The notes under the pieces are model-generated. The model saw only the letters and a program-made list of their open reading frames with translations, searched no databases and was not told where the DNA came from. A stretch of DNA of 64,000 bases, taken from assembly GCA_030583725.1 (NCBI GenBank), contig CP129472.1, positions 270,958-334,957 on the forward strand, given 5' to 3'. The translations under genes were made by a program, and so were the position numbers. Shown here in pieces: positions 14,877 through 52,658 of this stretch. This stretch comes from a bacterium (GTDB lineage: Bacteria; Patescibacteriota; Microgenomatia; UBA8517). How positions within the stretch are numbered: the stretch's first letter is position 1; the number at the start of each line of letters is the position of its first letter.

Positions 14877-14882
14877 ATACTA

Positions 14883-19699: not shown

Positions 19700-20512
19700 C
19701 TATAAAGTTTTTAAATACAATATCCTAAAATAATTATTAATCTTATGTGTATATACAAAAATTACATTCTTTGAATGTTTTCTGACAATCTTTATATCCA
19801 TACTAAACAGCTCGTTGTACATAACAGAACTGATACTACCTTCACTAATTCTGAATTTTGACAAATACATGTCAATTACAACTGGCATTTGATCTTTTCC
19901 AATTTTTAACCACATATCATATTCCATAACTGCAAATTTTGTTCCAGTAAATAAACCATATTTTCTAAGTGCTTTTTTAGTTAGAAAGACCGATGGTTGC
20001 ATAAGATAGTTGGTCATAAGCAAGAGGTTGTACAAATTAAATTTCAACAAAAAACTTTTGTAAACTGTTGCAATTTTTGCAATTTCAATATCATTTTCAT
20101 CAATTACAATTCCTTTTCCAGCAAACCACAAAGCATTTGGATTTTCTTTGTAATACTCAGCCACTGTAAAAAGTGCATCTTTTTCATATACATCATCTGC
20201 ATTGATAAAAGTTACTATTTCCCCTTTTGCTTTCTTTAGTCCCTTATTTATAGCATCTAGTTGCCCATCATCTTTTTTTGAAACAAACTTAATTAATTTA
20301 GGGTATTTCTTTGCATATTTTTTAATTATGTCAAGTGTTCCATCTGTTGACCCTCCATCTTGAATTATTACTTCTACTCTAACATTTTTTTGAGTCACAA
20401 TAGACCGGAGTGTTTTTTCTATATATTTAACTTTATTATATGAAGGAATGATAATGGAGATTAAGGGATACATATTATCTAAGTGTATAGTATGTTGACC
20501 TACCTCCGCCAT
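19700..20512 (-). CDS. Glycosyltransferase family 2
   Basis: ISIIIPSYNKVKYI ... IQDGGSTDGT ... INADDV. The true start is probably the internal Met of MYPLISIIIP (about 20473), which removes the overlap with fic. Confidence 0.85.
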   Translation of the reverse strand: MAEVGQHTIHLDNMYPLISIIIPSYNKVKYIEKTLRSIVTQKNVRVEVIIQDGGSTDGTLDIIKKYAKKYPKLIKFVSKKDDGQLDAINKGLKKAKGEIVTFINADDVYEKDALFTVAEYYKENPNALWFAGKGIVIDENDIEIAKIATVYKSFLLKFNLYNLLLMTNYLMQPSVFLTKKALRKYGLFTGTKFAVMEYDMWLKIGKDQMPVVIDMYLSKFRISEGSISSVMYNELFSMDIKIVRKHSKNVIFVYTHKINNYFRILYLKTL

Positions 20513-21548: not shown

Positions 21549-21875
21549 TTATTTCTCTTTCAATGCCAGCTTACGAACCAACTCTTCAATCTTTTTTTCT
21601 AATTTATTGACCCTAATGTATGCAGATGAGACCATTATAAATAAAACTATAAAAGCTCCCCCAATTAGAAGATCCAAGACTCTAGAAATTGCAAAACTAG
21701 CTGCATATACTCTAATGATCTCTGGGAAAACTATGATTAAGATTACAGCTACCCATATACCTATCCAACTAGCTATTTCCATACCACTCAAGTTGCCCTT
21801 TTTATAATGCAAAACTGCAAAATAAATCATTGTTAATGAAAAAAGTATTCCTGTTATTTGTAGACCTAAAATCAT
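21549..21875 (-). CDS. DUF2304-family small membrane protein (GT2-associated)
   Basis: 108 aa with 3 to 4 helices and a C-terminal LEKKIEELVRKLALKEK tail. It matches the DUF2304 pattern (FAVLHYKKG ... ELVR.LAL..K) and lies immediately downstream of a DPM1-like GT2, which is the usual pairing. Confidence 0.75.
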   Translation of the reverse strand: MILGLQITGILFSLTMIYFAVLHYKKGNLSGMEIASWIGIWVAVILIIVFPEIIRVYAASFAISRVLDLLIGGAFIVLFIMVSSAYIRVNKLEKKIEELVRKLALKEK

Positions 21876-21894: not shown

Positions 21895-22566
21895 CTATTT
21901 TATATATATTTTCCAATAAACTAAGTTAAGCAAGATTCCAAAAGCATCTATTATTGATACACCCTTGTAATTATCAAAGTATATAGTCTCAATAGGTATT
22001 TCACAATATTTTAAGTTTCTTTTCTTGATTCTAATTACCATCTCAGTTTCTACACCATAACCTGTTGAGTCCCATTTAATTTTGCCATATGCTTTTTTAG
22101 TTATAGCTCGAAAGCCCGATATTAGATCAGAAACATATATACCAAACATCAGATTAATAATGACTGAAGCCACCTTATTACCTATGAATCTGATAAATGG
22201 CATACCCAAGTTTAGATTCCTTGAGCCAAAAATGACTTCGTATTTACCTGTCTTTAATTTCTCAATGAATTTATGTAGGTCATTAACTGCATGTTGACCA
22301 TCTGAATCCATTAGTATTACTGCATCAGCACCATGGGAAAATGCATATTCACAACCAGTTTTTAATGCCGATCCCTTACCTAAATTAACTTTGTGATGAA
22401 GTACTGTAATATTTGGTTTCTTTATACTGTGGAGCTTTAACTTGGTAGCATCATTGCTCCCATCATCAACCACAACTGCCTCATGGCCTAACTTAGTCAG
22501 TTTACTTAAGACTATTAAAACCCCACTTCCTTCGTTATAAACAGGCAATACGATACTAACCTTCAT
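21895..22566 (-). CDS. GT2 polyprenyl-phosphate hexosyltransferase (DPM1-like)
   Basis: 223 aa. VSIVLPVYNEGSGV ... VVVDDGSNDAT ... LMDSDGQH. Confidence 0.85.
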   Translation of the reverse strand: MKVSIVLPVYNEGSGVLIVLSKLTKLGHEAVVVDDGSNDATKLKLHSIKKPNITVLHHKVNLGKGSALKTGCEYAFSHGADAVILMDSDGQHAVNDLHKFIEKLKTGKYEVIFGSRNLNLGMPFIRFIGNKVASVIINLMFGIYVSDLISGFRAITKKAYGKIKWDSTGYGVETEMVIRIKKRNLKYCEIPIETIYFDNYKGVSIIDAFGILLNLVYWKIYIK

Positions 22567-23518: not shown

Positions 23519-24658
23519 CTAGCTAACAAAGTAGCCCCTGAAAAATAAGATTTCAGCTAGTGTTCCCATTATAGCTAAAAATACATAAATACCAAGCCTT
23601 AAGTATTTATTGGACTTCTCAAGTAGTATTGAAGCAAAAATAAACATCGGAAATAATAACAATGCATACCTAGGAAGTGATGAAAAACTACCTGACACTG
23701 TAGGTATCAAATACCCAAATACGGAAAATAACCAGTAGTCCCAACGTATTTTTCGAAAGCTATACAAAATAACTATCAAAAATAATAAAGCAATTCCAAA
23801 TTCTAATAAAACCGTAAAGACAACAGGCGGATAACTCCAAGATAAGTTGGGTATTATTTTTGCCACATAGCGGTAAAAAACCTGAGGTAAAAGAATAATA
23901 CTGTCTGACCTCTGCTCCCCAAACAAAGTATATGCCTGATATAGTTTTATAGAACCTCCCCAATATAAAAATATATAGTACATATAAGCCAATAACCCCA
24001 AGGGGATAAAGAGCAATGACAAAAGTCGTTTGTTAATAAGTTTTCTATCCAAAAAGACATTAATTAAAAACACAGGTAATAAGGTTATACCAACAGCCCT
24101 AGTTCCAGAAGCCAGCATTCCCAAAAGTGACGCAAATAATACTTTGTTTTTCCTAAACAAGTAAAATGACCACACAGCTAGACATAAAAATAAGCTTTCA
24201 GTGTATACCGCTGCAAAATAAAAAGATGTTGGGAAAACAAGCATTAAAATGATACTTAACTTAGCTATCCTTTCTGAGTAATCCAAAGACACCAACTTGT
24301 ATAACCCTATTAAACCCAAGAAAAGTGATAAGTTTGAAATTAAAATACCACTCCAAACATAAATGTATAATTCCCTTCCAAAAAGGGACCCTATTAAATC
24401 AATTAAAAATGGGTAAAAAGGAAAATAGAACTGCTGAAGGCTTTTATACCCATAAAGTGCAATTGAAGTAAAATGCTCTCCATCAAAGTTTGCCCAACCC
24501 CAAAACAAAGGATTTTGTAAGTAGTTAACCAACTTGCCTCCAAAAAAGTTTTCCCCAAATAAAGGAACATAATAAACAGAAAACATTGCAACTAAAGTTA
24601 CTAAAACTCTCCACACAATGAAGCTTTTTAAAACGAATAAAAAATCAAATCTTTTCAT
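23519..24658 (-). CDS. Polytopic membrane protein, GT-C-like (PIG-V/DUF2029-like mannosyltransferase-type)
   Basis: 379 aa with about 10 helices. The first loop carries WANFDGEHF, which is shared with 62604..63734 (ANYDGPLY). No large soluble domain. Confidence 0.45.
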   Translation of the reverse strand: MKRFDFLFVLKSFIVWRVLVTLVAMFSVYYVPLFGENFFGGKLVNYLQNPLFWGWANFDGEHFTSIALYGYKSLQQFYFPFYPFLIDLIGSLFGRELYIYVWSGILISNLSLFLGLIGLYKLVSLDYSERIAKLSIILMLVFPTSFYFAAVYTESLFLCLAVWSFYLFRKNKVLFASLLGMLASGTRAVGITLLPVFLINVFLDRKLINKRLLSLLFIPLGLLAYMYYIFLYWGGSIKLYQAYTLFGEQRSDSIILLPQVFYRYVAKIIPNLSWSYPPVVFTVLLEFGIALLFLIVILYSFRKIRWDYWLFSVFGYLIPTVSGSFSSLPRYALLLFPMFIFASILLEKSNKYLRLGIYVFLAIMGTLAEILFFRGYFVS

Positions 24659-25607
24659 AAACCTTAATCATTTCTTTTGCAGTTTTTTCCCAACTATATT
24701 CCCTTGGTAGTTTTATCTTTTTATTAGGGTTTAATAAAGCTTTTGCTAAAGCTCTTGGGCTAGTAGGGTCTACATATCTTATTTCCTGCCCTAAAATCTC
24801 AACTAATGCTTGTGTTTTAGTCGCAACCAAAGGGGTCCCAACTGTCACAGACTCAAGAGCTGGCAACCCAAAACCTTCATATAAAGAGGGTTGTACATAT
24901 ACACTTGCAAGGTTATACAGTTTATTTATATCTTCATCACTAACGTAGCCCAACCTAGTTACATTTTTAAAATTTACTCCTTTAAGGTGTTCCAGTTCTG
25001 GGTGGTTTAAATCCATACTTTCTATTTCACTTGCCTGTTTACCTGCAATAACCAATGGTATTTTTGCAATTTCACAAGCTTTAACAAGATTTGGTATATT
25101 TTTGTTAAAGTTAATATCCCCAATGTACAATGCAAAACGTTTTGGTAAATTGAATATATTTGCAGTAGTTTTCTTTTTAAATATTTCTTTTGGTGCAAGA
25201 TAGACAACATCAACAATATTAGGGTCAACTCCCAAGAACCTGACAATATCCTTTTTACTAGTTTCAGAAATTGTGACAATTCTATCTACATACAACTTAA
25301 TTAGTAACTTATTAACAAAAAACTTAATTTTTCCCCTGACACCTGCAGGATAGTGGTCTGGATATACCAAATATATTAAGTCATGAATTGTTAAAACCAA
25401 TTTTTTAGAAGGTTTAAAAAAAGGAAGGGAAATAAAATAAGGATTAAATTTTGTGTAATGGACAATATCAGCATCCTTAGTCTCATTTGATATTTCTACC
25501 CCCCCATATCTTACAAGTGCTTTTACAAGCTCATTCGTATGCACCCCAATCCCCCTAACACTATCACCCTCGGTAACAATCTTGGGAACAAATGCAATTT
25601 TGACCAT
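24645..25607 (-). CDS. Glycosyltransferase family 4 (GT-B)
   Basis: 320 aa. YEGFGLPALESVTVGTPLV gives the E-x7-E motif of retaining GT4 enzymes. Confidence 0.85.
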   Translation of the reverse strand: MVKIAFVPKIVTEGDSVRGIGVHTNELVKALVRYGGVEISNETKDADIVHYTKFNPYFISLPFFKPSKKLVLTIHDLIYLVYPDHYPAGVRGKIKFFVNKLLIKLYVDRIVTISETSKKDIVRFLGVDPNIVDVVYLAPKEIFKKKTTANIFNLPKRFALYIGDINFNKNIPNLVKACEIAKIPLVIAGKQASEIESMDLNHPELEHLKGVNFKNVTRLGYVSDEDINKLYNLASVYVQPSLYEGFGLPALESVTVGTPLVATKTQALVEILGQEIRYVDPTSPRALAKALLNPNKKIKLPREYSWEKTAKEMIKVYEKI

Positions 25608-25637: not shown

Positions 25638-26387
25638 TTATTTAGGTTCTGGTTTGTTCCATTCTCCAAAACCATAATCTCCTGGGTAAAGTGTGTATTC
25701 CACCTCCCTGTCGGTGTCCTTAATTATCTCAACCAGTTTGTCCCCCACCCATTCAGGAGTAAAGTAGGCCTTTCCACTTTCCATATCTTTTTTCTTTTCT
25801 TCAAAGCTCATAGGTCCAAAGCTTGTTAGTGTACTACCTAGAGTAATTAAACAGAATTTAGGGTTTCCAATCCTTTTAAATTCCTCAGCCAAACTTAAAA
25901 TAAAACCCCTTAAGCCGAATTTCATTGCACAATAAAGACTTCTCCCTGACATAGGTATAACTCCAGCCCCAGAACCAATAGTTAGGACTAAGGAATCTTC
26001 TGAGGTGTTAAGACTTGGCATTAGCTCTTTAATAAAAACGAAAGTGGAAGTCAAACCAATATTTATAGTTTTGTTCCATTCATCTAGTGTAGCTAACTCA
26101 ATTGGTTTGTAAATTCCAATACCCGTAGCATTAATCAATACATCAATTTTTGAAAAATCACTTTGTATTTCTTTTGCAGTTTTTACTGTTTTTTCTTGAT
26201 CTGAAAAATCAGAAACATAATACTTACTTTCTTTATTTTCCAAACTTTTTAATAAATTAGAAAGTTCAGTTTCAGTTCTAGAAACCAAAATCAGTGTAGC
26301 ACCCTCATTATCTAATCTCTTGACAATCTCTCGTCCTATTCCACCTGTTGCTCCTGTTATGACTATAACTTTATTTTTCAATTTCAT
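25638..26387 (-). CDS. Short-chain dehydrogenase/reductase (classical SDR)
   Basis: 249 aa. VIVITGATGGIGREI (TGxxxGxG) and SLYCAMKFG (YxxxK). Confidence 0.85.
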   Translation of the reverse strand: MKLKNKVIVITGATGGIGREIVKRLDNEGATLILVSRTETELSNLLKSLENKESKYYVSDFSDQEKTVKTAKEIQSDFSKIDVLINATGIGIYKPIELATLDEWNKTINIGLTSTFVFIKELMPSLNTSEDSLVLTIGSGAGVIPMSGRSLYCAMKFGLRGFILSLAEEFKRIGNPKFCLITLGSTLTSFGPMSFEEKKKDMESGKAYFTPEWVGDKLVEIIKDTDREVEYTLYPGDYGFGEWNKPEPK

Positions 26388-27250
26388 ACTTTTTCTAGTT
26401 TATTATCTGTTACATACTTAAAGTATGCAATTGGGAAGTGCCAAGATGAGAACAAACTCCAAAGAAAACCATTTGTCCCATCTAGAATCCCTTTGTGTCT
26501 AAAATATAAATTTAAAAATGTATAGGTTGGTTTAAAAAAAACATAATTTGTAAAACCACTTAAACCTTTATTTACTTTTTCTCTAACCAACTCATTTTTT
26601 TGTAAATCAGTATATCTATTTAATCTTGCAAAATATCTTTTTAATGTTGGTGAATCATAATGCAATAAGGACTCATTTAACCACCCAACCCTACCATTTA
26701 ACTCTATTTGCTCATGGACAGACTTACAAGGAAACTTAGCATAACCATTCTTAACAAGTCTTATAACCCCATCTGGATATACTCCTGCGTGAATTAGTGG
26801 TTTTCCTAAAAACATATTCCTTCTTGGCACAAAGTAACCAACAACTTCACCAGTGTCTTTACCAATTTTTCCATCCCTCTCTTCAATAAGTTGTTGATGT
26901 TTTATAAAAAGTTTGTTTTGTGGAGAGCTATTAGTGGTAGGTCTATTATTAACAATATCTAAAATTTCTTTTGATAGTTCCCTTGTTACTACTTCATCAG
27001 CATCAAGTTGTAATATCCATTCACCAGTAGCTTTCTCAAGAGCTTTTTGTTTAGTGATATGAAAGATATCATTATGTTTTTCCAAATAGACCTTTGCCCC
27101 ATAACTCTCTGCAATTCTCTTGGTATCATCTGTTGAGTGTTCATCAAACACAATTATTTCATCTGCAATTTTTTTTACAGATTTCAAACACCTTGCAATA
27201 TTTTCCGCTTCATTCCTTGTGGCTAATACAACACTTAACTTCATATTCAT
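26384..27250 (-). CDS. Glycosyltransferase family 2 (WaaE/KdtX-like)
   Basis: 288 aa. LSVVLATRNEAENI ... IVFDEHSTDDT ... LQLDADEV. Paralogous to 46776..47504 and 47501..48403. Confidence 0.75.
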   Translation of the reverse strand: MNMKLSVVLATRNEAENIARCLKSVKKIADEIIVFDEHSTDDTKRIAESYGAKVYLEKHNDIFHITKQKALEKATGEWILQLDADEVVTRELSKEILDIVNNRPTTNSSPQNKLFIKHQQLIEERDGKIGKDTGEVVGYFVPRRNMFLGKPLIHAGVYPDGVIRLVKNGYAKFPCKSVHEQIELNGRVGWLNESLLHYDSPTLKRYFARLNRYTDLQKNELVREKVNKGLSGFTNYVFFKPTYTFLNLYFRHKGILDGTNGFLWSLFSSWHFPIAYFKYVTDNKLEKV

Positions 27251-27260: not shown

Positions 27261-28838
27261 CTACTGCCCCTGTCCTTCTACTATATAAAAAGCATCACTG
27301 TTATCTGGATATTTTATTAACCTTTTAACATCAAACTGTGGGGCAAAACGTAATCCTGTGTAGTAACTTGGTGTTACAGCATACAATATCCCATTATTTG
27401 GATAACTTTCAATTATGTTCCAACCTCCAAATTGATATCTTCCAAACGATAAAACAGTATTAAAGCTTTTTGAACTTGATTGGTCATATTTTACCGTTTT
27501 TAACAATTCTGGAAGAGAAACTTTGTTGTAGTAAAGAAAGTAGATATATGGCTGTTGTCTAATATTATCTACATACATCTTGTAAAAGTCAGGGCTCTCC
27601 CTTGTGTATTCAACAATTTCTTTCATACCATATTGCCACTCTATCGCTTCTTTAGTAGGGTATACTTTTGTGTAGTAATTTAAATAATTAGTTACTTCTC
27701 TAAATAAAAAGGTTAATATAATTACTAACATAAATGCTTTTAACCATTTACTTTTAAACAGAGATAGCAATGCATCTGCACCGCATGCAGACAGGAGTAA
27801 CATAGGTATTATCATGAAAATTCCCCTAATAGAACTTGGGTCGGTTGAAGAAACTGCACTTGGGATTGGTGACAATAATAACCAAGTAAAAATAACGGCT
27901 AATGCTTGCCATTTTTTTCTGTAAAGTAAGGAAATAAAACCAATACCCAATAAAATCAAGTCAATTCTATAAAACTGACCAACCACTTTAACTGATGCCC
28001 TTGGACCTTGATCTCCATTCTCAAAAAGATATTTATGTGTAAAATGTTTTTTGTAATTTTCAAAAACTAAATTTAATTTACCACCAGCGTTTAATATCAG
28101 TTCTTCAGAAAATTTCGTCTGTCCCATACGAGCAAAACCTAAAATTCTTGTATCTTTAATAATTAGAATCCCAAATAACAATGTAATTAAAACTGAAACC
28201 ATCAACAAAGTCTTGTTTTTAAGTAGCTTCTTTAAATTTATTAAACAAACAAGAAAGACCACTACTGGAACAACAACTTTTGCAGAGTGATATGAAAAGA
28301 AACTTAAACCAAAAAACAAAAAGGATATGGGTATTAAATATTTTTTAGTTCTTAAACCAATATAAAAACTAGCAAGTCCCGTTATTAAAAAGAATAATGC
28401 AAAGTTGTTCTCCCAGAGCCCTCTTGAAAAATGTATGTGGTATGGCGAAACAGCCAAAAATAATGCAGCAAATAAGCCTGCTAAATTACTTCTTAACAAC
28501 TCGCGAGCGAACAAGAATATAGCAATAACAGACAAAGTTCCAATTAAAGCACTACTAGACCTAACACTGTAATCATTAAGTCCAAATATTTTTACAATAA
28601 CTGAAGTAATATAAATGTGGACTGGGTGTTTGTCATCATAAAAAGATGTAAAAACAGTTGGAAATTTATCTCCGTATTCATCCATTCCCCAATTTGCAAT
28701 TGTGTAAGCATTGTATCCTGCAGCAACTTCATCCCAGTTTAATGAAGCAGGTATTTGATCTAGCTTATAAAACCTCATAAACCCAGCCAGAATTACAATA
28801 ATCGCAAGTACAATATATGTTAATTTGTTTCTCCACAT
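27261..28838 (-). CDS. GT-C glycosyltransferase, ArnT/PMT (GT39/GT83)-like, tandem paralog 1 of 5
   Basis: 525 aa. N-terminal helix, then a loop IPASLNWDEVAAGYNAYTI with the WDE acidic motif typical of lipid-phosphate-sugar-dependent GT-C enzymes, about 11 helices, and a C-terminal soluble domain. Confidence 0.75.
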   Translation of the reverse strand: MWRNKLTYIVLAIIVILAGFMRFYKLDQIPASLNWDEVAAGYNAYTIANWGMDEYGDKFPTVFTSFYDDKHPVHIYITSVIVKIFGLNDYSVRSSSALIGTLSVIAIFLFARELLRSNLAGLFAALFLAVSPYHIHFSRGLWENNFALFFLITGLASFYIGLRTKKYLIPISFLFFGLSFFSYHSAKVVVPVVVFLVCLINLKKLLKNKTLLMVSVLITLLFGILIIKDTRILGFARMGQTKFSEELILNAGGKLNLVFENYKKHFTHKYLFENGDQGPRASVKVVGQFYRIDLILLGIGFISLLYRKKWQALAVIFTWLLLSPIPSAVSSTDPSSIRGIFMIIPMLLLSACGADALLSLFKSKWLKAFMLVIILTFLFREVTNYLNYYTKVYPTKEAIEWQYGMKEIVEYTRESPDFYKMYVDNIRQQPYIYFLYYNKVSLPELLKTVKYDQSSSKSFNTVLSFGRYQFGGWNIIESYPNNGILYAVTPSYYTGLRFAPQFDVKRLIKYPDNSDAFYIVEGQGQ

Positions 28839-30196
28839 ACTTTTGGAAAGGTGTAGCTACCAAATGATTTTACAGTTGAAAAACCCCAATCAGAAACAGG
28901 ATTTAACTCTCTTGTGTCTATAAAATAGTTGGGGTCAACCTTATTGTAATACAGTGCAAAAATATAGGGTTGTGCATACTGGTCACTAACACAACCTTCT
29001 TTTTGTCTTTCAAATATTTCTTTGTATTCATATTGCCATACATTTACTGACAAATCATTGTAAACAGTTCCAAATTTATACATATATCCTTCAAATGAGA
29101 GAGTATACAAAACAACTACAGCAATCAATATAATTTGTTTTTGTTTCTTAAAAATTTCAGACAAGTAATAAATTCCAAGAGCAGAGATAATAGATAACAT
29201 TGGGGACATTAATATTGATCTTAAAGCGTGAGGATTTTCTTTTGTAATTGATGCAGGAATTGGAGCAAGTAGTAATAATCCCAAAACTATAAACAACTTT
29301 GGATTTTTTGACTTTAAAATATATAAAACCCCCAAGGCCAAAAATATTGCATCTAAATAATATAGTTGTGATTCTCCAGGAATTTGACTCCTAGGGTTAC
29401 TATCACCATCTATAAATAAAAAGGTAGGAGAAAAGTTTTTTAAGTAGTTTGTAAAAATTGTAGACGAACCAACTGCTTGTAATCTTGATAGACCAGAATC
29501 GTGTTTGTAAAGTTTATATAATGGGAAAAAACTTGCAGACAAAACTAAAACAGACAAAATTAATACAGCAAATTGTTTTTTGTAAAGGTGGTATACAAAA
29601 CCAAGACCTAAAACTATTGGTGTTAGTATTCTAAAACTATTATAACTATAAAATGACCCGATAAATAACATTGTTGACAGAAAAAGATGCTTTTTTTCAG
29701 TAGCTGATTTCAATAAAAAGTAAGTTGCCCAAATAAATAAAGCCAAACCAGCAACCGCTTCATAACCTGTTCTTGAAAAAATAAAAAACCAGGGGGTTAT
29801 TGAAAACAAAAAAAAACTAAGTAGGGAAACACTTTTTTGTTTTGTTAGTTGTAATACCAAAAGATACAAACCAATTATGGAAAATAAACCAAAGATAACT
29901 GCAGGAAAACGAAGAGCAAAAGTATTCATCCCAAATACAAATTGAGAGGCAACAACTGAATAAATATAAACAGGTAACTTAAACTCTCCAAAAGCCCTGA
30001 AGTGAAGAGGTAAAAACTCACCCCATTCATCTTTACCTGTTGTTAGTATGGAATATGCATTATATCCAATTGAGGCCTCATCCCAATAGACAGATGCAGG
30101 TATTGAGTCAATCCTAAATAATCTAGTTCCTAAAAAAAGTAAGCAGATTACTATTAAAACAAAGTTAGTTTGTAACAATTTCAAAAGCTGTTTCAT
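28820..30196 (-). CDS. GT-C glycosyltransferase, ArnT/PMT-like, tandem paralog 2 of 5
   Basis: 458 aa. IPASVYWDEASIGYNAYSILTTGKDEWGEFLPLHFRAFGE is collinear with the neighbouring paralogs. Confidence 0.75.
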   Translation of the reverse strand: MKQLLKLLQTNFVLIVICLLFLGTRLFRIDSIPASVYWDEASIGYNAYSILTTGKDEWGEFLPLHFRAFGEFKLPVYIYSVVASQFVFGMNTFALRFPAVIFGLFSIIGLYLLVLQLTKQKSVSLLSFFLFSITPWFFIFSRTGYEAVAGLALFIWATYFLLKSATEKKHLFLSTMLFIGSFYSYNSFRILTPIVLGLGFVYHLYKKQFAVLILSVLVLSASFFPLYKLYKHDSGLSRLQAVGSSTIFTNYLKNFSPTFLFIDGDSNPRSQIPGESQLYYLDAIFLALGVLYILKSKNPKLFIVLGLLLLAPIPASITKENPHALRSILMSPMLSIISALGIYYLSEIFKKQKQIILIAVVVLYTLSFEGYMYKFGTVYNDLSVNVWQYEYKEIFERQKEGCVSDQYAQPYIFALYYNKVDPNYFIDTRELNPVSDWGFSTVKSFGSYTFPKVCGETN

Positions 30197-31817
30197 TGTT
30201 TAAGAAATTTATCCTTTCTAGTATTTTTACCTCACTTGGAAAATCTCCAACTTTACCTATAAATAGTATTTTTTTATCTGGATTATCTATTACAATATCT
30301 TCATACCTTGTCCCATCATCACCTAGATCTGGAAAATAGTATTTATCAAACCTTAATACTCTTACCCAATCAAACGTTTCAAACCTTTCCAAATTATTAA
30401 TTTCTTGAAATTTTTTTGGATCATAATTTAAATTAAATAAGGTAAAAATATGGGGCTCACCATATACTCTTGAGTAAACAACTAGGTCATAATCATCTTG
30501 ATTCTCTTTTATATACTCAACTACTTGTTTATTTCCATGCTGCCAGTCTCTTGAATAGTTAACAGAATAGTCAACATATAACTTTTTTAAATAAATTGAA
30601 AAGTTAATCAAAAACAAAACAACAGCAAGTAATAGTAATAACTTGACAAGTTTTTTGTTGTTATTTAGTTTTACAAAATAGTAAATACCAATTGCTGTAA
30701 AAACTTGATAAACAGGAACTGCAATTAAAGTTCTAAGCGCGTTTGGAATACTATCATTAGTCATTGATACGGGCACAAATGCCAGTAGTAACCATGGAAG
30801 TAAAACTTTCAAAGACCAGTCTTTACGTTTCAACAATAGATAAAGTCCATATAGTAAAAATGGGGCTTGAATCCAGTACAATTCTCCAACACCTTGCACA
30901 TGGTGTTGTCTGTGGCCTGCACCGTTAACGAATAAGAAGTCTGGAGTAAAGTGAGATAAATAATTAACAGAAAAGTAATATGTATTATATGTATATCTGT
31001 TGTGAATTAGTTTTGTAACTAGTGGCGGAAGCTTAGACAAATTCCTTCTTTCTTCAATCCTAGGAATTAGACCAGCATCATCAGTGATACTAACAAGTTT
31101 GTATCTGGCAGATGCCTCTCCAGACAACACAAATGGTATAAGTGGAATTAATAAAACTACAAAAGCTAGAGTACTAAGTACCATATACTTAAAATTCTTA
31201 AACAAAAACTTAATATTTAATAAATAATAAACAAGTAAGAAAAATGGAGTAAAAACACGCGCAGTATTATAAGTATAGACAGATATTGCAAAGGGTATCA
31301 TTGAGACAATAAACCAAATTGGCTTTTTGAAACCTTTAACCAAAAACCAAACCGCCATAACAAACCAAAACAGTGAAAATGATGATTCAAATGAACCTCT
31401 TGTTAACTGTATGTGCCAAGGAGAAACTGCAAGAAGAAAAGATGATATCAAAGCAATCTCACGTTTCTTGAATATTTCATAAACTAAAAAATATAACAAT
31501 AAAACTGTTAATGTTCCATAAACCACAGGTGTGATCCTAACACCAAGTTCATTTAATCCAAAAAAATAAATTCCAGGTATTGAAGCATATATTTGAGCAG
31601 GTAATTTATATTCTCCAAAAGATCTAAAATGCAAAGGCATAAACTCACCCCACTCATCCTTTCCAGTTTTTAGTATTGAATATGCATTGTAACCAATTGA
31701 GGTTTCATCCCAATTTAGAGAAGGTGGGACTGAAGTAACTTTGTATAATCTCAATCCAAAAGCAAGGATTAAAATAATAAAAAGCCAAAAGTTATTTTTT
31801 AACAAATTCTTGATCAT
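30165..31817 (-). CDS. GT-C glycosyltransferase, ArnT/PMT-like, tandem paralog 3 of 5
   Basis: 550 aa. VPPSLNWDETSIGYNAYSILKTGKDEWGEFMPLHFRSFGE. The C-terminal domain shares the block WQ.G.K..VEY......Y..VVYSRVYGEPHIF with paralogs 1 and 2. Confidence 0.75.
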   Translation of the reverse strand: MIKNLLKNNFWLFIILILAFGLRLYKVTSVPPSLNWDETSIGYNAYSILKTGKDEWGEFMPLHFRSFGEYKLPAQIYASIPGIYFFGLNELGVRITPVVYGTLTVLLLYFLVYEIFKKREIALISSFLLAVSPWHIQLTRGSFESSFSLFWFVMAVWFLVKGFKKPIWFIVSMIPFAISVYTYNTARVFTPFFLLVYYLLNIKFLFKNFKYMVLSTLAFVVLLIPLIPFVLSGEASARYKLVSITDDAGLIPRIEERRNLSKLPPLVTKLIHNRYTYNTYYFSVNYLSHFTPDFLFVNGAGHRQHHVQGVGELYWIQAPFLLYGLYLLLKRKDWSLKVLLPWLLLAFVPVSMTNDSIPNALRTLIAVPVYQVFTAIGIYYFVKLNNNKKLVKLLLLLAVVLFLINFSIYLKKLYVDYSVNYSRDWQHGNKQVVEYIKENQDDYDLVVYSRVYGEPHIFTLFNLNYDPKKFQEINNLERFETFDWVRVLRFDKYYFPDLGDDGTRYEDIVIDNPDKKILFIGKVGDFPSEVKILERINFLNNETAFEIVTN

Positions 31818-32958
31818 AATAATTTATTGTTGTTGGAAAAATGTTTTCCACTCTCTTAGCATACTCAAACCAATAGTCATTTACAAAAAACCAGTAACCA
31901 ATAAGGACTGTGGTCATTATAATTAAGCCAATGATTTTGTTCATAGATAAGTATCCTATTGTTGAGATAATCACATAGAACGGTACTAACGCAAGTAGCC
32001 TACTTGCTCTATATATATCTGGAACAAATCCAAATAGTAAGGGTAATAAAAAGAAAGAGCAAAGGATTAAAACTTCAAAAGGCTTCTTTCTCTTTAATAT
32101 ATCCCATACCCCTGCTAAAAATAGTGGTAGTGTAAAAATAAGAAACATTCCTGATTTCCCAGTTGAATGATAGGAACTTATATCTCCCTTTAAGAACATA
32201 AAACTTAAGTCAAACACGCTTAAGTATCGTAATGCAAATTCATAAAAAGAAGGGGCAGTAGAACTAAAACTTCCCACCACCGCACTAGGGTAGTAAAAGT
32301 TAGCAACATATAAAAGAATGAAAAATGGTAATACTCCTACCAAGAATAATACACATTGTTTAAAACTTTTTCTTAAGTATATTAAGGTTATTAGTGATAG
32401 AACAGGAACAATTATCCTCATACCTAGATAGGAAAATATACCAGCACCTAAAAATGCCCCAGCTAAAATAAAATGTATAGGTTTTTTTTGCTTTACAAGC
32501 ATCAATAGCCACAAAAATATAAATGGTAAAACCGCAATGTTTTCTAAAGCCAAATGTGACTGGATCATAATAATTGGAGTAGTTATTAGTATTATGAAAC
32601 CAACTAAGAAAAACTTTAAGTTGAAAACTTCTTTGGACAAAAAGTAAAAAATTATTATTGAGGCAACGACAAACAACACACTAGTCATTCTAAGTGCTGC
32701 AAAAGAAACACCAAACACTTTAAAAATTGCAGCTGTTGTGTAAACAGTTACAGGCTGTTTCCAATCAGATGTTTTTGCAAATATAAATAGCGGTAGAAAA
32801 TTATTATTCTCATCTGTCAAACTTTTAGACATCAGTGCTGCGTTATGGGCTATACCTACCTCATCTCCATTTATTCCAGGGGGGACTTCAGTAATTCTAA
32901 ATGAAAAAAGTAAAAAAGCTAAAAAACAAAAAAGAGTAACTATAAAAATATTTTTCAT
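31792..32958 (-). CDS. GT-C glycosyltransferase, ArnT/PMT-like, tandem paralog 4 of 5, short form lacking the C-terminal soluble domain
   Basis: 388 aa. VPPGINGDEVGIAHNAALM loop, with a GDE motif in place of WDE. The membrane core is retained but the sequence ends shortly after the last helices. Confidence 0.65.
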   Translation of the reverse strand: MKNIFIVTLFCFLAFLLFSFRITEVPPGINGDEVGIAHNAALMSKSLTDENNNFLPLFIFAKTSDWKQPVTVYTTAAIFKVFGVSFAALRMTSVLFVVASIIIFYFLSKEVFNLKFFLVGFIILITTPIIMIQSHLALENIAVLPFIFLWLLMLVKQKKPIHFILAGAFLGAGIFSYLGMRIIVPVLSLITLIYLRKSFKQCVLFLVGVLPFFILLYVANFYYPSAVVGSFSSTAPSFYEFALRYLSVFDLSFMFLKGDISSYHSTGKSGMFLIFTLPLFLAGVWDILKRKKPFEVLILCSFFLLPLLFGFVPDIYRASRLLALVPFYVIISTIGYLSMNKIIGLIIMTTVLIGYWFFVNDYWFEYAKRVENIFPTTINYYDQEFVKK

Positions 32959-34439
32959 TTGTCAGAAATTGTCACATTATCATATATTTTTGGGAGCTTG
33001 CCATATTGAGAAATCACATCTTTTGGATCGATTTTTGCATATACAGGGTATGCATACTCTATGTTGTCAATTTTTGTCGAGAGAGTAATATCAATATTCT
33101 TGTCAGTCTTTATTGTAGCCAGAGAAACCATCTTTGCTTCAGCAGACCAAAAACTGCCAAACTTATTTGGTGCAAAATAATAAATAGTTATTAAAACGTA
33201 AATTAATTGAACAACCATTAATAAAACTATTGTTACAATCCATTTTTTTGAAAGGTTAGATAAAGCGAAAGCTGAAACTAAGATAAAAGCTGGTAACATT
33301 AAGTTATTCCTGAGTCCATGTGTTTGCCCCATTAACATTGTAGCCAAGGGAACAATCAAAATCCAAGAAACAAGTAGAAGTAAACTTTTCTTATTCATAC
33401 TTGCCAGCTTGTAAAAACCAAATAAAATTAAAGGTAACTCAACTAAATACATCATACCCCATTCACCAGGATTGACTCGTGGGTTTCTGTCACCTCTTAA
33501 AAATAAAAATTCTGGGGATAAATTTTCTAGATAATTTTCAAAAAGAATTCTTGTATATGCAAGTGGCTTGTTATAAACAATAGGCTTAATCATCACTGGT
33601 AAAGTTGATAAGGTTCTTTGCTCATTGATCTTTTGTATGACAGACTCCTGTCTGTTTCTATCAGAAAAGATGTTCAAATCCAAAAAACGTACTTCTGAGG
33701 TACCTTTGAAGGTTTCATTCAATGAAAATACACTAAAAACAACCAACACTAATAAAGATAACTTAAACTTGTTATTTTTAAAAGTCTCCCTAAAACCAGA
33801 AAAACCTATTAATACTAAAAACAATAAAGGCAGTGTTAACTTAAAAGTAGGATATGTAAATATTGTTAACCCCCAAAGAAGGGCCATCCAAATGTATTTT
33901 TTATGCAAAAACATTAATATCCCAAAGGTTGCCAAAAACAAGGCAAAATGAGCTTCAAACCCAGCGCGTGATAAATAAATATCCCATAATGAGATTGAAG
34001 TTAAAAATGAAGCCCATAAACCAACCTTTTTACTAAACAACTTCTTACCTAAAAAGTACATTAGAATTATTATTCCAATTCCAGAAATTAAAGATAAGCT
34101 TCTTACCCCCCATTCAGATGGTCCAAACAACGCCACGAACGGTATACTACCGTAAACATAACCTGCAGGCCTACCTGCTCCCATTTTAAAGGTTAATGGA
34201 AGGCTTTCTCCAGTCTGGTCCATACCTGTTTTTAGAACGCTGTAAGCATCGTAAACCATAGTTAGTTCATCACCATACATAGGTAAGCTGTCAAGCTTAA
34301 AAACACGAAGTAGAGTCCCAAGAATAATGATTAAGAGTAGTATATAATTTAGATATGGAAGTTGTTTTAATGGGTTCAATTTTTGTGTTTTCTGCTGCCA
34401 CCCTAGTTTCATATCTTTTAATTGTACTAAATATTCCAT
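32955..34439 (-). CDS. GT-C glycosyltransferase, ArnT/PMT-like, tandem paralog 5 of 5
   Basis: 494 aa. LPMYGDELTMVYDAYSVLKTGMDQTGESLPLTFKMGAG is collinear with paralogs 1 to 3. The ORF-track start overlaps the divergent plus-strand gene, so the true start is probably an alternative codon further downstream. Confidence 0.7.
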   Translation of the reverse strand: MEYLVQLKDMKLGWQQKTQKLNPLKQLPYLNYILLLIIILGTLLRVFKLDSLPMYGDELTMVYDAYSVLKTGMDQTGESLPLTFKMGAGRPAGYVYGSIPFVALFGPSEWGVRSLSLISGIGIIILMYFLGKKLFSKKVGLWASFLTSISLWDIYLSRAGFEAHFALFLATFGILMFLHKKYIWMALLWGLTIFTYPTFKLTLPLLFLVLIGFSGFRETFKNNKFKLSLLVLVVFSVFSLNETFKGTSEVRFLDLNIFSDRNRQESVIQKINEQRTLSTLPVMIKPIVYNKPLAYTRILFENYLENLSPEFLFLRGDRNPRVNPGEWGMMYLVELPLILFGFYKLASMNKKSLLLLVSWILIVPLATMLMGQTHGLRNNLMLPAFILVSAFALSNLSKKWIVTIVLLMVVQLIYVLITIYYFAPNKFGSFWSAEAKMVSLATIKTDKNIDITLSTKIDNIEYAYPVYAKIDPKDVISQYGKLPKIYDNVTISDK

Positions 34440-36190: not shown

Positions 36191-36764
36191 AATAAACTAG
36201 CTTCACTGTCTCTAGTCTACTGTCTGGTTTGTGAAATGTAACAATTGGAGCACCACCTATATGTAACTCTTCATCGTATATATACTCCAATATTTCATCT
36301 GTTTTCTCTGTTAAAAATATCTCAATTATTTCTTCATCCCCTGCACTTGGCGAAGAAAGAGTAAAGTAATATTTCTTACTTTCAGAGTCTGGTATTTTAT
36401 CAAAAACAATCTTTACAAAATCTCCATCCCCAATATTGAAACCGTTTAAAGTTACTGATCTTACTAATCTTGCGTTTTCCTGATATAGATCAAAAAAAAT
36501 ATCTTTCTTGTTGTGTAGGTTTGGATTTTTAATAGTTGTCCCAACAGCGGTTAAGTTTTTGTTTTTTGACACAAAGTATTGGGTGAAAATTCTTTCTCCA
36601 TAGACTGAAACTCTTCCCATGTCACCATACCCTGGCTGGTCATCTGCAGGTATCATCTGGATTAACATTGCCATCAAACCTGGAAATAGAAATAATAAAA
36701 ACAAGATTGTAGCAATTGTAAAAACTGAAAACTTACTTTGTAAAAACATACTTTTTTTATTCAT
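36162..36764 (-). CDS. Membrane-anchored, probably exported, small protein of unknown function
   Basis: 200 aa. N-terminal signal-anchor helix (FSVFTIATILFLLFLFPGLMAMLI), then a hydrophilic acidic domain. Co-oriented and overlapping with the downstream GT-C gene. Confidence 0.45.
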   Translation of the reverse strand: MNKKSMFLQSKFSVFTIATILFLLFLFPGLMAMLIQMIPADDQPGYGDMGRVSVYGERIFTQYFVSKNKNLTAVGTTIKNPNLHNKKDIFFDLYQENARLVRSVTLNGFNIGDGDFVKIVFDKIPDSESKKYYFTLSSPSAGDEEIIEIFLTEKTDEILEYIYDEELHIGGAPIVTFHKPDSRLETVKLVYSNLFSKLLQ

Positions 36765-50090: not shown

Positions 50091-50941
50091 GCTTCAATTT
50101 CACCTGTATATGCTCGAAATGAGTAATCTTGAATACCTAACTTTTTTGAAAGCGTGACCATCATCTCAAAAAAATATGGAGAATAATATTTCAACCTGCT
50201 GAAAACATACTCCAAGCTTAAAACGTGATAAGTCTTTCTGGTCTCAATATTTTTGAATCCCGCCATTTCTAAAGCTAATCTTAACGATCCTTGTGTAAAA
50301 TACATGATATGTTCACCAGGTTTATAGTGATACCACATGGATTTTAATAATTTGTGCCACAACCCTCCAATATCAGGAGTTACTAAAAATATGAGTCCAT
50401 CTTTTTTTAAATATTTATACGCAATTTTTAACTCCTTAATGGGGTTGCTCACATGTTCAATCACATCTTGGTAGGTAATAATATCAAAATTGTTCCTTGG
50501 GTAACCAGAGTCTTCTAGCACAGTGTTTTTTATGTTAGTAACTCCCCTTTTTTTAGCCTGACTCACTGCAAACTCTGATACTTCCACACCATACGAGTCT
50601 TTCCATCCCAGATGTGTTGCGACTTCAAGACAATCACCCAGCGCAGCGCCTACATCTAATAACCTTCCTTTAAATTTCAGCTTTTTTTCTATTTTCTTCA
50701 ATCTATCAATAAAAGTTCTTTTATTTATTCTCATCCCTTCAAAATAATTTGTATAACCACCTTTTGGATTATCGTTTTGAAAGTAGGATTTATCATATTG
50801 AAGCAAAACATCCACTTGGTGATTTGAGTCCCAAACAAACTCACATTCTTTACATCTCGACAACTTATAACCATGCATTGCCCAATATTTGGTATTTCTT
50901 TTACTTTTGCAGATCGGACATTTATTAGTTAGTTTTGCCAT
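50075..50941 (-). CDS. Class I SAM-dependent methyltransferase with N-terminal C4 zinc ribbon
   Basis: 288 aa. CPICKS...CKECEF ribbon, then LLDVGAALGDCL (motif I) ... DIITYQDVIEHVSNP ... KDGLIFLVTP. Confidence 0.8.
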   Translation of the reverse strand: MAKLTNKCPICKSKRNTKYWAMHGYKLSRCKECEFVWDSNHQVDVLLQYDKSYFQNDNPKGGYTNYFEGMRINKRTFIDRLKKIEKKLKFKGRLLDVGAALGDCLEVATHLGWKDSYGVEVSEFAVSQAKKRGVTNIKNTVLEDSGYPRNNFDIITYQDVIEHVSNPIKELKIAYKYLKKDGLIFLVTPDIGGLWHKLLKSMWYHYKPGEHIMYFTQGSLRLALEMAGFKNIETRKTYHVLSLEYVFSRLKYYSPYFFEMMVTLSKKLGIQDYSFRAYTGEIEAWGQK

Positions 50942-52658
50942 TTTGAATCCATCTATTACAAAACTCGTCGCTGGTCATCTTTTCTATATGATAGTCAGAA
51001 ATCAAATGGGACCGTCGATATACCGCCAACTCACTTTGATTACATAGTCTATCATTAAAAATCTTAAAAGTGACACCCGAATCACTCTGGTTTTGTAATA
51101 CCAAGTATTTTTCATTTTCAATAACACAATCTAGTTTGGAATCTAAGAATACTACTCCAACCCGCCCTAACTCACTACAATCATCAGTTATCAGAACTTT
51201 TCCAATTTCATACCTACTTTTTTCTTTGCTCAAGTTGTTCATCGAAATATCAAAATAATCGCGGTTATAAAATATCAATTCATTAAATATAGAATACGGT
51301 GAAGTTGTTAAGACAGTAATCTCTTGATCTTTAACCATATCAACATAACTTGATATTAATCTGCCTTCTACAAAATTATTTGAATGCTGCCTTATGGGAT
51401 ATCTAAAAAAGTAAAAGATTAGAAAAACCACAAATAATGCAAGATAGGTAAAAAGTATAGTAAGCAATCCCAGAGTAAAGTATTTTTTAGGCAAAACTAG
51501 AATGGATTCGTATATACCTAGTGCAATTAAAATAATAAAAGACGGTACTAATAAGAAGGATCTGTAAAAATATGAATCACCGTTCAAACTCAGGGCAGAT
51601 GGTACTGGCGCCAGTACGAAAAAAAGTGCCAACGGCCATACTACATAACCATATTTCCTTAAAGAGTATATTCCAACAACTATAAATAACAAATCAAGCA
51701 AATAGATTAATCCGTGATCTTCAAATGTATACAACCCTCTTAGATCTCCCTTCCAAAAAAGAATATCTGAGCTTATATAACCGATATAGTTTTCCGTGAA
51801 TTTCAATCCAGTAAATGTATATTTATTTATTATTATCTCTTTATATGGAAAATCTATAGAGTTTTTCCTGTACTCATTTACTTTAGACATCAAATGATCG
51901 GGGTTTAAAAATATAAGTTCCTTATGGCTTCTTTGGTTGAATGTGGTGTTCTGACCTCCGTAAAGTGGAATAAAATAGACAACTGTAGTCAAAACAAAAA
52001 TTACCAAATAAACAAGGTAGAGATACATATTTTTTCTTTTGTTATATACATAATGAAAAATAAGCAATATGGGAACAAGAATCAATAAAATAGGTTTTGA
52101 ACCAAAGTAAGAGTAAAAACCGGCGATGAAGAAAGGTAATGAGTAGAATATTTTTTTGTTTCTAAACTTGGTCAAGATATAGGAACCGAGCATTATCATT
52201 AGAAGTGCGAAAGGAGCTTCTGTCGGCAACCTAGAATAAGTAAACAGCCAAGGGTTGATAAGACCAACAAACAAGGTAATATAAAAAACTAATATATCCT
52301 TTTTTTGCGTTAACTCGTACAACCAAAAACTAATAAACAGGATTGTCAAAAGATTAATCAAAACGAATATCAACCTCGACTCAGTTAGATTACCATTAAT
52401 AACTTTATATATAGGCGATAAAATAAGTGAGGGAAAACCAGCTATGCCTGCTTTTGTATCATTTGAGAATATTGACTTATACCAAGCAGTCCCAGACGAA
52501 TCAACAGAATAGTTGGCAATGGTTTTGGAACTCAATGCAACTTCAAACTGATCTGCATCCATCCCAACTGGAAAACTATTAAGCCAGATAAATCTGATAC
52601 CAATTAAAAGTATTAGACTAATTCCGATTAAATATTTGTTTAAAGCTTTTTTTAGCAT
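50925..52658 (-). CDS. GT-C glycosyltransferase, ArnT-like (DADQ-loop subfamily) with a C-terminal soluble domain
   Basis: 577 aa. The first loop FPVGMDADQFEVALSSKTI carries an acidic DxD-type motif in the ArnT position, then about 11 helices and a C-terminal domain of about 170 aa. Confidence 0.6.
   Translation of the reverse strand: MLKKALNKYLIGISLILLIGIRFIWLNSFPVGMDADQFEVALSSKTIANYSVDSSGTAWYKSIFSNDTKAGIAGFPSLILSPIYKVINGNLTESRLIFVLINLLTILFISFWLYELTQKKDILVFYITLFVGLINPWLFTYSRLPTEAPFALLMIMLGSYILTKFRNKKIFYSLPFFIAGFYSYFGSKPILLILVPILLIFHYVYNKRKNMYLYLVYLVIFVLTTVVYFIPLYGGQNTTFNQRSHKELIFLNPDHLMSKVNEYRKNSIDFPYKEIIINKYTFTGLKFTENYIGYISSDILFWKGDLRGLYTFEDHGLIYLLDLLFIVVGIYSLRKYGYVVWPLALFFVLAPVPSALSLNGDSYFYRSFLLVPSFIILIALGIYESILVLPKKYFTLGLLTILFTYLALFVVFLIFYFFRYPIRQHSNNFVEGRLISSYVDMVKDQEITVLTTSPYSIFNELIFYNRDYFDISMNNLSKEKSRYEIGKVLITDDCSELGRVGVVFLDSKLDCVIENEKYLVLQNQSDSGVTFKIFNDRLCNQSELAVYRRSHLISDYHIEKMTSDEFCNRWIQNGKTN

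Follow-up and report, generated by a model that had tools for sequence, protein, structure and literature searches.

The 64,000-nucleotide (64-kb) stretch of DNA analyzed here, referred to below as the window, comprises positions 270,958 to 334,957 of contig CP129472.1 (GenBank assembly GCA_030583725.1), from a bacterium of the Patescibacteriota lineage Microgenomatia. Between window positions 27261 and 34439 lies an array of five co-oriented open reading frames (ORFs) on the minus strand, encoding 525, 458, 550, 388 and 494 amino acids (aa), which we named C1 to C5 from low to high coordinate, the order of transcription being C5, C4, C3, C2, C1. An original prediction, made from the sequence alone, had described them as tandem paralogs of ArnT/PMT-like GT-C glycosyltransferases with junctions overlapping by 4 to 32 nucleotides (nt). 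The five frames, their positions, their common strand and these overlaps were all recovered: from 5' to 3' along the array the overlaps measure 4, 26, 32 and 19 nt, and each of the genes starts with ATG. The genes are listed below in order of transcription, with scores to be read against the Pfam cutoffs for PMT_2 (PF13231, 26.1 bits) and PMT (PF02366, 22.7 bits).

32955..34412, minus strand: C5, GT-C (PMT_2) paralog and first gene of the array; most likely 485 aa, counted from a conserved ATG; GDE in loop 1; degenerate C-terminal block; PMT_2 34.5 bits; Woesebacteria orthologs 50-70% identical; clade bootstrap 100%.
31792..32958, minus strand: C4, short paralog of 388 aa; transmembrane (TM) core intact; GDE; stops about 25 aa past the last TM helix; PMT_2 36.6 bits.
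30165..31817, minus strand: C3, 550 aa, the best-conserved copy; PMT_2 43.9 bits, PMT 36.4 bits; orthologs 60-79% identical.
28820..30196, minus strand: C2, 458 aa; WDE; C-terminal domain shortened (about 70 aa), with WQYE.K and QPYIF retained; PMT_2 30.8 bits; clade bootstrap 100%.
27261..28838, minus strand: C1, 525 aa, the last GT-C gene of the array; WDE; full C-terminal domain; PMT_2 55.5 bits, PMT 46.6 bits; clade bootstrap 95.5%.

The start of C5 was revised. The ATG at 34412 is present in all eight aligned genomes, whereas at the position of the ORF's first ATG, 34439, the other seven have TAG or TAA. The true start of C5 is therefore most likely 34412, which gives 485 aa and not the 494 aa obtained from 34439. 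The database gene caller begins C5 at an internal methionine, giving a 441-aa protein that lacks the first TM helix (TM1); this start is very likely wrong. The 5' end of C5 also overlaps head to head with a divergent gene on the plus strand (ATG 34355 or 34370) encoding a 611-aa membrane protein. The two coding ends overlap by 43-58 nt in eight of eight aligned genomes, the DNA there and nearby is unusually conserved, and the promoter of each gene must sit within the other.

Paralogy, fold and catalytic core

In an all-against-all blastp comparison of the window's ORFs, C2 and C3 were 35% identical over 504 columns (E 9e-77), with further matches between C1 and C2 (32%, E 2e-59), C1 and C3 (28.5%, E 6e-48) and C3 and C5 (31%, E 8e-41); C4 matched C1, C2 and C3 at 25-30% identity (E 1e-16 to 1e-21) and C5 only weakly (E 4e-4). 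The multiple alignment of the five copies is collinear from end to end, and D36, D53, R93, E143 and R338 (C1 numbering) are invariant. Judged by their sequences, C1-C5 are true paralogs, related far beyond chance.

The motifs from which paralogy had first been proposed are real, although their distribution differs somewhat from that described. The full N-terminal consensus fits C2 and C3; only its skeleton, P...[WG]DE...A......D..G..P, is found in C1, C4 and C5. The C-terminal block (W-Q-[YH]-[GE]-x-K ... QP[YH]I[FY]), which had been assigned to three copies, is found in four of the five, in degenerate form in C5 (FWSxEAK...IEYAYPVY). The replacement of WDE by GDE, reported for C4, is indeed present there; it also occurs in C5, and GDE is the conserved state across the whole C4 and C5 ortholog families, the Asp-Glu pair itself being invariant.

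The assignment to ArnT/PMT-like GT-C proteins was confirmed for family and fold. All five copies score above the PMT_2 threshold; the related PMT family is matched above its cutoff by C1 and C3, while C2 falls below it (21.6 bits) and C4 and C5 have no match. The exact C3 protein is already listed at NCBI as 'glycosyltransferase family 39 protein', and its close relatives belong to Candidatus Woesebacteria (Microgenomates, Patescibacteria). An AlphaFold2 model of C3, with which the other four copies are collinear in the alignment, was built from an alignment of 38 sequences and is of high confidence (predicted local distance difference test, pLDDT, 90.4; predicted template modelling score, pTM, 0.89). 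When it was compared with the Protein Data Bank (PDB) using Foldseek, the top matches were all GT-C class A structures (probability 1.00, template modelling (TM-) scores of about 0.5-0.57): AglB (E 3.5e-9), STT3 (E 5e-8) and ArnT (E 1e-7), the last with the best mutual TM-scores (0.56/0.57), and further PglB, Pmt4, ALG9/12 and Pmt1/2, with weaker matches to Emb, AftD and DPY19. The modelled fold of C3 is thus that of a polytopic GT-C class A protein. In sequence searches, ArnT (5EZM) was the sole relative of solved structure (E 6e-4 to 5.5e-3, across the TM2-TM7 region).

In the model of C3 we count about 11 TM helices; the first loop spans residues 25-89 and includes WDE at 36-38, the long loop spans 232-316, and residues from about 421 to 550 form a C-terminal alpha/beta domain, which begins with WQHG at 425-428. 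In a set of 35 sequences drawn from the five ortholog clades, conservation reaches at least 95% at 16 residues: P31, D37, E38, D54, P61, Y77, G87, R94, E144, Y183, Y286, L295, G299, G311, G324 and R362. Conserved acidic residues are therefore present in the first extracytoplasmic loop of every clade, as WDE or GDE, and D37-E38 occupies the N-terminal end of the first loop helix following TM1, the site of the catalytic acid in GT-C class A enzymes. In an alignment with ArnT, the near-invariant K71 pairs with the lysine of the EKPP motif, and E144 is one column off D158 of ArnT; we take both of these ArnT residues to be functionally important in that enzyme. Since the catalytic-core residues are conserved across all five clades, all five copies, including the short C4, look catalytically competent.

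The copies differ mainly outside this core. The first extracytoplasmic loop is the segment best conserved between paralogs (identity 0.42, compared with 0.75 within clades), while the C-terminal domain has an identity of 0.61 within clades and 0.21 between them, the lowest between-clade value and the highest within/between ratio. The long loop that follows TM7 differs in length from clade to clade, with 85-89 aa in C3 and C5, 50-69 aa in C1, 50 or 82 aa in C2 and 52 aa in C4, and 14 positions of the alignment are clade-specific. A profile of the C-terminal domain found no relative in Pfam or among PDB sequences, and a model of the domain alone (pLDDT 83.5) gave no significant Foldseek match (best E 0.34, TM-score at most 0.37) and no oligosaccharyltransferase domain. 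When the profile was searched against 1.84 billion cluster representatives, 1750 matches were obtained; among the full-length matches listed (about 500-580 aa), the domain lies at the C-terminus or a few residues short of it, with one exception about 27 residues short, and most of the shorter matches resemble gene fragments. The domain is, on these profile searches, a family-specific module, and we regard it as the best candidate for a putative acceptor-specificity element. The earlier suggestion that the copies diverged in specificity is compatible with this concentration of divergence in the C-terminal domain.

Orthology, selection and the variable slot

To place the array among its relatives, the neighborhood was compared by tblastn with 13 related loci (designated by L numbers where they must be distinguished). 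The order C5-C3-C2-C1-GT2, in which GT2 is the gene directly downstream of C1, is kept in L001 and L003-L008, where array genes are 64-79% identical to those of the window, except for C5 of L003 (about 51%) and C1 of L003 and L006 (43-46%); the flanking genes are similarly conserved. Best-hit analysis gave clean 1:1 orthology for the copies, whose counterparts in other Woesebacteria are 41-79% identical. In a neighbor-joining tree (51 sequences, 455 columns, 200 bootstraps), C2, C3, C5, and C4 together with a relative from L010, each formed a clade with 100% bootstrap support, and C1 one with 95.5%. Identity is 54-70% within clades and 22-34% between them. C1, C2, C3 and C5 group with tandem members of L010, L012, L014 and L016 (bootstrap 77%), and C4 falls outside this group, its exact placement having less than 40% support.

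In Daviesbacteria, locus L021 holds, in order, a long C4 (53% identity), C3 (59.5%), C2 (45%), C1 (41%), GT2 (54%), GT4 (39%) and a PIG-V-like gene (36%), and L020 is similar. Because the order C4-C3-C2-C1-GT2-GT4 is thus found in Daviesbacteria as well, the duplications are ancient, the array predating the split of these Microgenomates classes. The proposed origin by serial tandem duplication and divergence therefore holds as far as shared ancestry is concerned, and similarity follows adjacency in the ancestral order C5-C3-C2-C1; the event is an old one, however, with no ongoing expansion. L010, L020 and L021 yielded no C5 ortholog, and C5 appears to be confined to Woesebacteria, having been either gained there or lost elsewhere. 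More distant genomes (L010, L012) carry five or six tandem members of the family.

The C1 genes of L003 (13574-15205) and L006 (12959-14533) stand out, being 43-46% identical to C1 of the window, while the adjoining C2 and C3 genes reach 64-77%; C1 may exist as divergent allelic types, or this one gene may have been replaced. A further observation concerns taxonomy: L002, L009 and L010 are labelled Gammaproteobacteria, yet bear a Woesebacteria-type array with orthologs 60-79% identical, and these taxon labels of metagenome-assembled genomes are probably wrong.

The history of C4 was read differently in the original prediction, according to which one copy had lost its C-terminal domain. A shortening is indeed evident in the C4 lineage: orthologs at 60-81% identity have 387-392 aa, the length found in Woesebacteria, while relatives at 43-53% identity have 475-511 aa, and the Daviesbacteria orthologs in the matching array position have 496-498 aa. 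C4 is not, however, a degraded copy of one of its neighbors, as it lies outside the C1/C2/C3/C5 clade. Homology between the C-terminal part of its long relatives and the C1-C3 domain was undetectable by hhalign (probability 0.6%). C4 occupies its slot in L014, L016/L017 and L018 and is absent from L001 and L003-L008. We rejected the possibility that it is a lineage-specific insertion, given its presence in the slot in L014, L016 and L018 and the long ortholog directly upstream of C3 in Daviesbacteria. On this reading of the comparisons, C4 would be ancestral, at first full-length, then shortened in Woesebacteria and later lost from many lineages.

What lies at the junction between C5 and C3 varies, and at least four states of this slot were distinguished: it may be empty, hold C4 alone, hold C4 together with an inverted PMT gene, or hold a GT2 gene with another paralog. 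The third state is seen in L016/L017, where the inverted 500-aa PMT gene (L016:11191-12693) clusters with the window gene at 1209-2750, and the fourth in L002 (7436-9700), where the GT2 is Ppm/PpgS-like and the paralog belongs to the same family. As far as these sequences indicate, variation exists between genomes only, as gain and loss of modules at this one slot.

Elsewhere, unrelated genes may adjoin or interrupt the block. A gene for about 215 aa lies between C3 and C2 in L003 (11584-12231, 215 aa) and L007 (11641-12300, 219 aa), and in L001 an unrelated 122-aa gene (14634-15002) lies between C1 and GT2; all three are tightly packed against the GT-C genes. The overlaps of the reading frames suggest that C1-C5 are co-transcribed and translationally coupled, as had been proposed from these overlaps alone; since unrelated genes interrupt the array or adjoin its end in L001, L003 and L007, direct coupling at each junction is not obligatory.

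All five copies are under purifying selection. Nei-Gojobori dN/dS values (the ratio of nonsynonymous to synonymous substitution rates), computed against the orthologs in L001, L005 and L018, were 0.08-0.15 in every copy, including 0.09 for C4; these ratios are approximate, as dS was 1.5-2.4, near saturation, and undefined against L014. The sole long DNA repeat in the array is a direct repeat of 180 nt (74% identity) in the parts of C2 and C3 that encode the first extracytoplasmic loop. Gene conversion between C2 and C3 was considered and rejected, the identity in this loop being 0.657 within the same genome and 0.654 across genomes; since the two values are equal, the repeat points to constraint on the active-site loop. 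No long identical tracts, simple-sequence repeats or notable tandem or inverted repeats were found in the array.

The downstream gene string and the rest of the window

The array opens a co-directional string of genes with gaps of at most 36 nt: C5, C4, C3, C2, C1, GT2 (26384), SDR, GT4, PIG-V-like, epimerase, GT2 (21895), DUF2304 and Fic. The members of this string that bear on glycan synthesis, together with a distant family member outside the array, are:

26384..27250, minus strand: GT2, 288 aa, directly downstream of C1; Glycos_transf_2 E 4e-20; syntenic in all loci, 41-73% identity.
24645..25607, minus strand: GT4-type glycosyltransferase; Pfam and NCBIfam GT4 matches; conserved synteny.
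23519..24658, minus strand: PIG-V/Mannosyl_trans2-like polytopic membrane protein; PF04188 E 0.0016, below threshold; L014 and L016 orthologs annotated PF04188; synteny extending to Daviesbacteria.
21895..22566, minus strand: PpgS/GacI/AglJ-like GT2, 223 aa; NCBIfam PpgS E 5e-31 over positions 2-218 of 226, below the equivalog cutoff.
21549..21875, minus strand: DUF2304 small membrane protein, 108 aa; Pfam DUF2304 74.2 bits (cutoff 25.5); family of GacJ and Rv3632.
50925..52658, minus strand: sixth, distant paralog of the family, 577 aa, outside the array; blastp E 1e-10 to 4e-15 against C1, C2, C3 and C5, with a collinear alignment; no Pfam match.

The two GT2 proteins differ in character. 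In Woesebacteria and Daviesbacteria alike, the one at 26384..27250 is invariably linked to C1; its NCBIfam match is limited to the N-terminal, generic GT2 region, and it is probably a cytoplasmic, nucleotide-sugar-dependent enzyme. The one at 21895..22566 matches not only PpgS, the polyprenyl-P-GalNAc synthase, but also the models of AglJ, PgfS and Dol-P-hexose transferase, and is a candidate polyprenyl-monophosphate-sugar synthase that would supply a donor to GT-C enzymes. It lies beside the DUF2304 gene, on the strand shared with the GT-C genes of the locus. A comparable set of proteins has been described by Rush et al. (10.1101/180810): the GT2 enzyme GacI makes GlcNAc-P-undecaprenol, the DUF2304 protein GacJ stimulates GacI, and the GT-C enzyme GacL moves the sugar to a wall polysaccharide; mycobacterial Rv3632 likewise stimulates PpgS (10.1101/180810). 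By analogy with these systems, we infer a functional tie of the GT2 and DUF2304 pair to C1-C5. The PIG-V-like protein is possibly another GT-C. Directly after the DUF2304 gene, within the glycan string, lies a gene (20475-21512) for a 345-aa Fic/DOC-domain protein with a possible C-terminal helix-turn-helix.

The window as a whole is one very large glycan locus, which accounts for about 7.6% of the 841,695-bp contig and has a GC content of about 32% throughout, so that no compositional island is apparent. Ten of its proteins score above the PMT_2 threshold, and roughly 18-20 genes are GT-C-like if GT87-, YfhO/PTPS- and PIG-V-like proteins and relatives of the PMT_2 proteins found only by BLAST (50925-52658, 55635-57011) are counted. 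Also encoded are two weak PIG-V-like proteins, about ten GT2/GT4 enzymes, Wzm/Wzt, a Wzx-like flippase, at least six methyltransferases and sugar-modifying enzymes. No arn operon (arnA, arnB, arnC, arnD) was found in the 64-kb window, in which the GT2 proteins match ArnC weakly, far below cutoff, and a DegT aminotransferase lies 25 kb away.

Tandem organization is not restricted to the array. A second set at 39205-44148 consists of three co-oriented genes encoding 540-556 aa that are 29-38% identical (E 1e-61 to 4e-120); one is a PMT_2 and two are YfhO/PTPS_related proteins, and the set is conserved in related Woesebacteria loci. One of the two YfhO/PTPS_related proteins is related to the array family by hhalign (probability 93%). 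Two GT87-like polytopic proteins (419 and 414 aa, 29% identical, E 2e-40) are encoded in tandem at 36757-39208, and after them comes the gene (36162-36764) for a conserved protein of 200 aa that has no family match. The 611-aa membrane protein that is divergent from C5 (34355-36190, plus strand) has a paralog at 48423-50090 (minus strand); these proteins of about 555-611 aa are 29% identical (E 8e-72) and match no Pfam or NCBIfam family. Compared with the GT-C family profile, the 611-aa protein gave a marginal hhalign probability of 43%, and the pair may represent an unrecognized GT-C-like family.

Interpretation and relation to known systems

We favor, with moderate confidence, the explanation that C1-C5 are non-redundant, polyprenyl-monophosphate-sugar-dependent transferases that act at the extracytoplasmic face on one surface glycoconjugate. 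In the cytoplasm, the GacI/PpgS-like GT2, aided by the DUF2304 protein, would load a sugar onto a polyprenyl-monophosphate carrier; at the outer face of the cytoplasmic membrane, each of C1-C5 would take the carrier-bound sugar and add it, presumably in sequence, to a surface glycoconjugate, possibly a glycoprotein or else a polysaccharide that belongs to the wall or is anchored in the membrane. Such a donor and site of action would fit the context, namely the PpgS-like GT2 with its DUF2304 neighbor and the alignment of K71 with the EKPP lysine. The copies are ancient paralogs inherited as a fixed block, C5-[C4]-C3-C2-C1-GT2-...-GT4-PIG-V-like, presumably expressed as an operon. Because the C-terminal domain and the length of the post-TM7 loop differ by copy, each enzyme, while sharing the catalytic core, probably has its own acceptor, linkage or donor. 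Lineages would then come to differ in their glycans because GT-C modules, alone or accompanied by a donor synthase, are gained and lost at the C5-C3 junction, and not through variation within a genome.

Several observations weigh against this explanation. Similarity to characterized enzymes is remote, amounting to E values of 6e-4 to 5e-3 for ArnT, with no NCBIfam match for C3. The GT2 immediately after C1 is unlike a polyprenyl-phosphate-sugar synthase, and the candidate synthase is encoded some 5 kb downstream of C1, where it could serve other GT-C proteins of the 64-kb cluster. A promoter and terminator scan, uninformative in itself, gave results at chance level (69 sites against 75 expected; 10 against 8). 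The deep branching of the paralogs is poorly supported (bootstrap 18-77%). Finally, strict co-inheritance suits a hetero-oligomeric complex as well as it does sequential action.

Such a complex, comparable to Pmt1-Pmt2 or EmbA-EmbB, with frame overlaps that match subunit stoichiometry and C4 as an optional accessory subunit, is compatible with the explanation we favor, but we judge it rather improbable as an account of the array. C5, C3, C2 and C1 co-occur strictly, in fixed order and with overlapping frames across genomes, and the fold matches include the PDB complexes Pmt1-Pmt2 and EmbA-EmbB as well as Pmt4 homodimers; on the other hand, all five copies retain the full catalytic core, so that none resembles a pure scaffold, and unrelated genes may intervene between C3 and C2. 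The copies could also be PMT-type protein O-glycosyltransferases (O-mannosyltransferases, for example), each with its own set of secreted or surface proteins such as pilins, S-layer proteins or adhesins. The loop-1 Asp-Glu pair is a hallmark of PMTs (Pmt1-Pmt2 structure, 6P25), and with the PMT scores of C1 and C3, the PMT-like count of about 11 TM helices, the Foldseek matches to Pmt4 and Pmt1/2 and the resemblance of neighboring GT2 proteins to the protein-glycosylation enzymes PgfS and AglJ, this is a hypothesis to be taken seriously. We nevertheless consider it unlikely, as C2 does not reach the PMT threshold and PMT matches are lacking in C4 and C5, as ArnT and the oligosaccharyltransferases match equally well or better, and as Wzm/Wzt, a Wzx-like flippase and many cytoplasmic glycosyltransferases in the window are typical of polysaccharide assembly.

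Two further proposals fare considerably worse. The original prediction had raised the possibility of a reservoir for glycan variation, that is, a dynamic, recently expanding and partly redundant array subject to copy-number change, recombination or phase variation, with C4 in decay. Slot content does vary between genomes, C1 is only 43-46% identical in L003 and L006, and C4 lacks the C-terminal domain. However, the paralogs are 22-35% identical and have 1:1 orthologs across Microgenomates classes; the dN/dS comparison that had been suggested gave about 0.1 for all five copies, C4 included; the short form of C4 is conserved at 60-81%; and there is neither gene conversion nor any long identical tract or simple-sequence repeat. 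This view is largely refuted, and we give it very little credence. It is equally hard to believe that the proteins resemble oligosaccharyltransferases, using a polyprenyl-diphosphate carrier as the source of a preassembled glycan that is transferred en bloc, and W-Q-Y-G in place of WWDYG. AglB, STT3 and PglB did give the best Foldseek E-values, and a W-x-[YH]-G motif directly follows the last TM helix. This motif is, however, absent or degenerate in C4 and C5, and neither WWDYG nor a Pfam STT3 match is seen in any copy. The hypothesis was rejected because the C-terminal domain profile found nothing among PDB sequences or in Pfam and the model of that domain had a best E of 0.34.

Genomes of the candidate phyla radiation (CPR)/Patescibacteria are tiny, yet a large share of the coding capacity here is devoted to membrane GT-C glycosyltransferases. 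The Microgenomates cell envelope is essentially uncharacterized, and a search of the available literature on GT-C, GT39, ArnT or mannosyltransferases in Woesebacteria, Microgenomates, Patescibacteria or CPR found nothing relevant; the conserved block of four to five GT-C genes and the candidate synthase offer concrete targets for the study of surface glycans, and the variable slot is a possible marker of lineage-specific surface differences. Tentatively, and with less confidence than in the explanation itself, one may imagine a mycobacterium-style extracytoplasmic assembly line in a CPR bacterium, in which a complex lipoglycan or wall polymer would be built mainly from polyprenyl-phosphate sugars. 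In this picture the C5-C3 junction would be a hotspot at which lineages exchange GT-C modules, at times together with a donor synthase of their own, and the resulting lineage-specific surface glycans might decide on attachment to hosts or recognition by phages in these episymbionts; the C-terminal domain would be a new acceptor-recognition module.

Among known systems, ArnT (GT83, 5EZM/5F15) shares with the array the PMT_2 family, is the only solved structure that sequence searches picked up and gives the highest mutual TM-scores, and its EKPP lysine and D158 pair with K71 and adjoin E144, respectively. It differs in that identity is about 10%, that similarity is far from the equivalog level, that the C-terminal domain of the array is unrelated and that no association with the pathway for 4-amino-4-deoxy-L-arabinose (Ara4N) is seen within the 64-kb window. 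ArnT has 13 TM helices, compared with about 11 counted in the C3 model, and the organism, as a CPR bacterium, is not expected to make lipid A. The PMTs (GT39; Pmt1-Pmt2 6P25, Pmt4, actinobacterial Pmt) resemble the array in the loop-1 Asp-Glu pair, in having about 11 TM helices, in the scores of C1 and C3 and in a TM core that superposes on the C3 model at a root mean square deviation of about 4-5 A over some 250 residues. The array, however, has no MIR domain, the equivalent post-TM7 loop having only 50-89 aa, three of its copies are below the PMT threshold and its C-terminal domain is its own. AglB, PglB and STT3 share the GT-C class A architecture followed by a C-terminal extracytoplasmic domain and gave the best Foldseek E-values (3.5e-9 to 1e-5), while the array lacks an STT3 Pfam match and WWDYG, and its C-terminal domain is unrelated to theirs in sequence and fold.

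In genomic organization, the closest parallels lie elsewhere. As in GacI-GacJ-GacL and PpgS-Rv3632-Rv3779, GT2 synthase-like and DUF2304 genes share a string with GT-C transferases; here there are five tandem GT-C genes instead of one, the GT2 is below the PpgS equivalog cutoff, and the pairing is a presumed one. The embC-embA-embB genes are likewise tandem GT-C paralogs, and Emb structures are among the weaker fold matches. Emb proteins have extracytoplasmic C-terminal domains, use polyprenyl-phosphate-sugar donors and have a distinct acceptor for each copy. They belong to another Pfam family, are twice the size (more than 1000 aa) and carry carbohydrate-binding C-terminal modules, so that the likeness is one of organization only. 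The array is no new kind of system; it is an uncharacterized, CPR-centered subfamily within an enzyme class that is already known, and NCBI lists its genes as GT39. It is noteworthy for a C-terminal domain that has no detected relative, for the strong conservation of the block and for the variable slot at its head.

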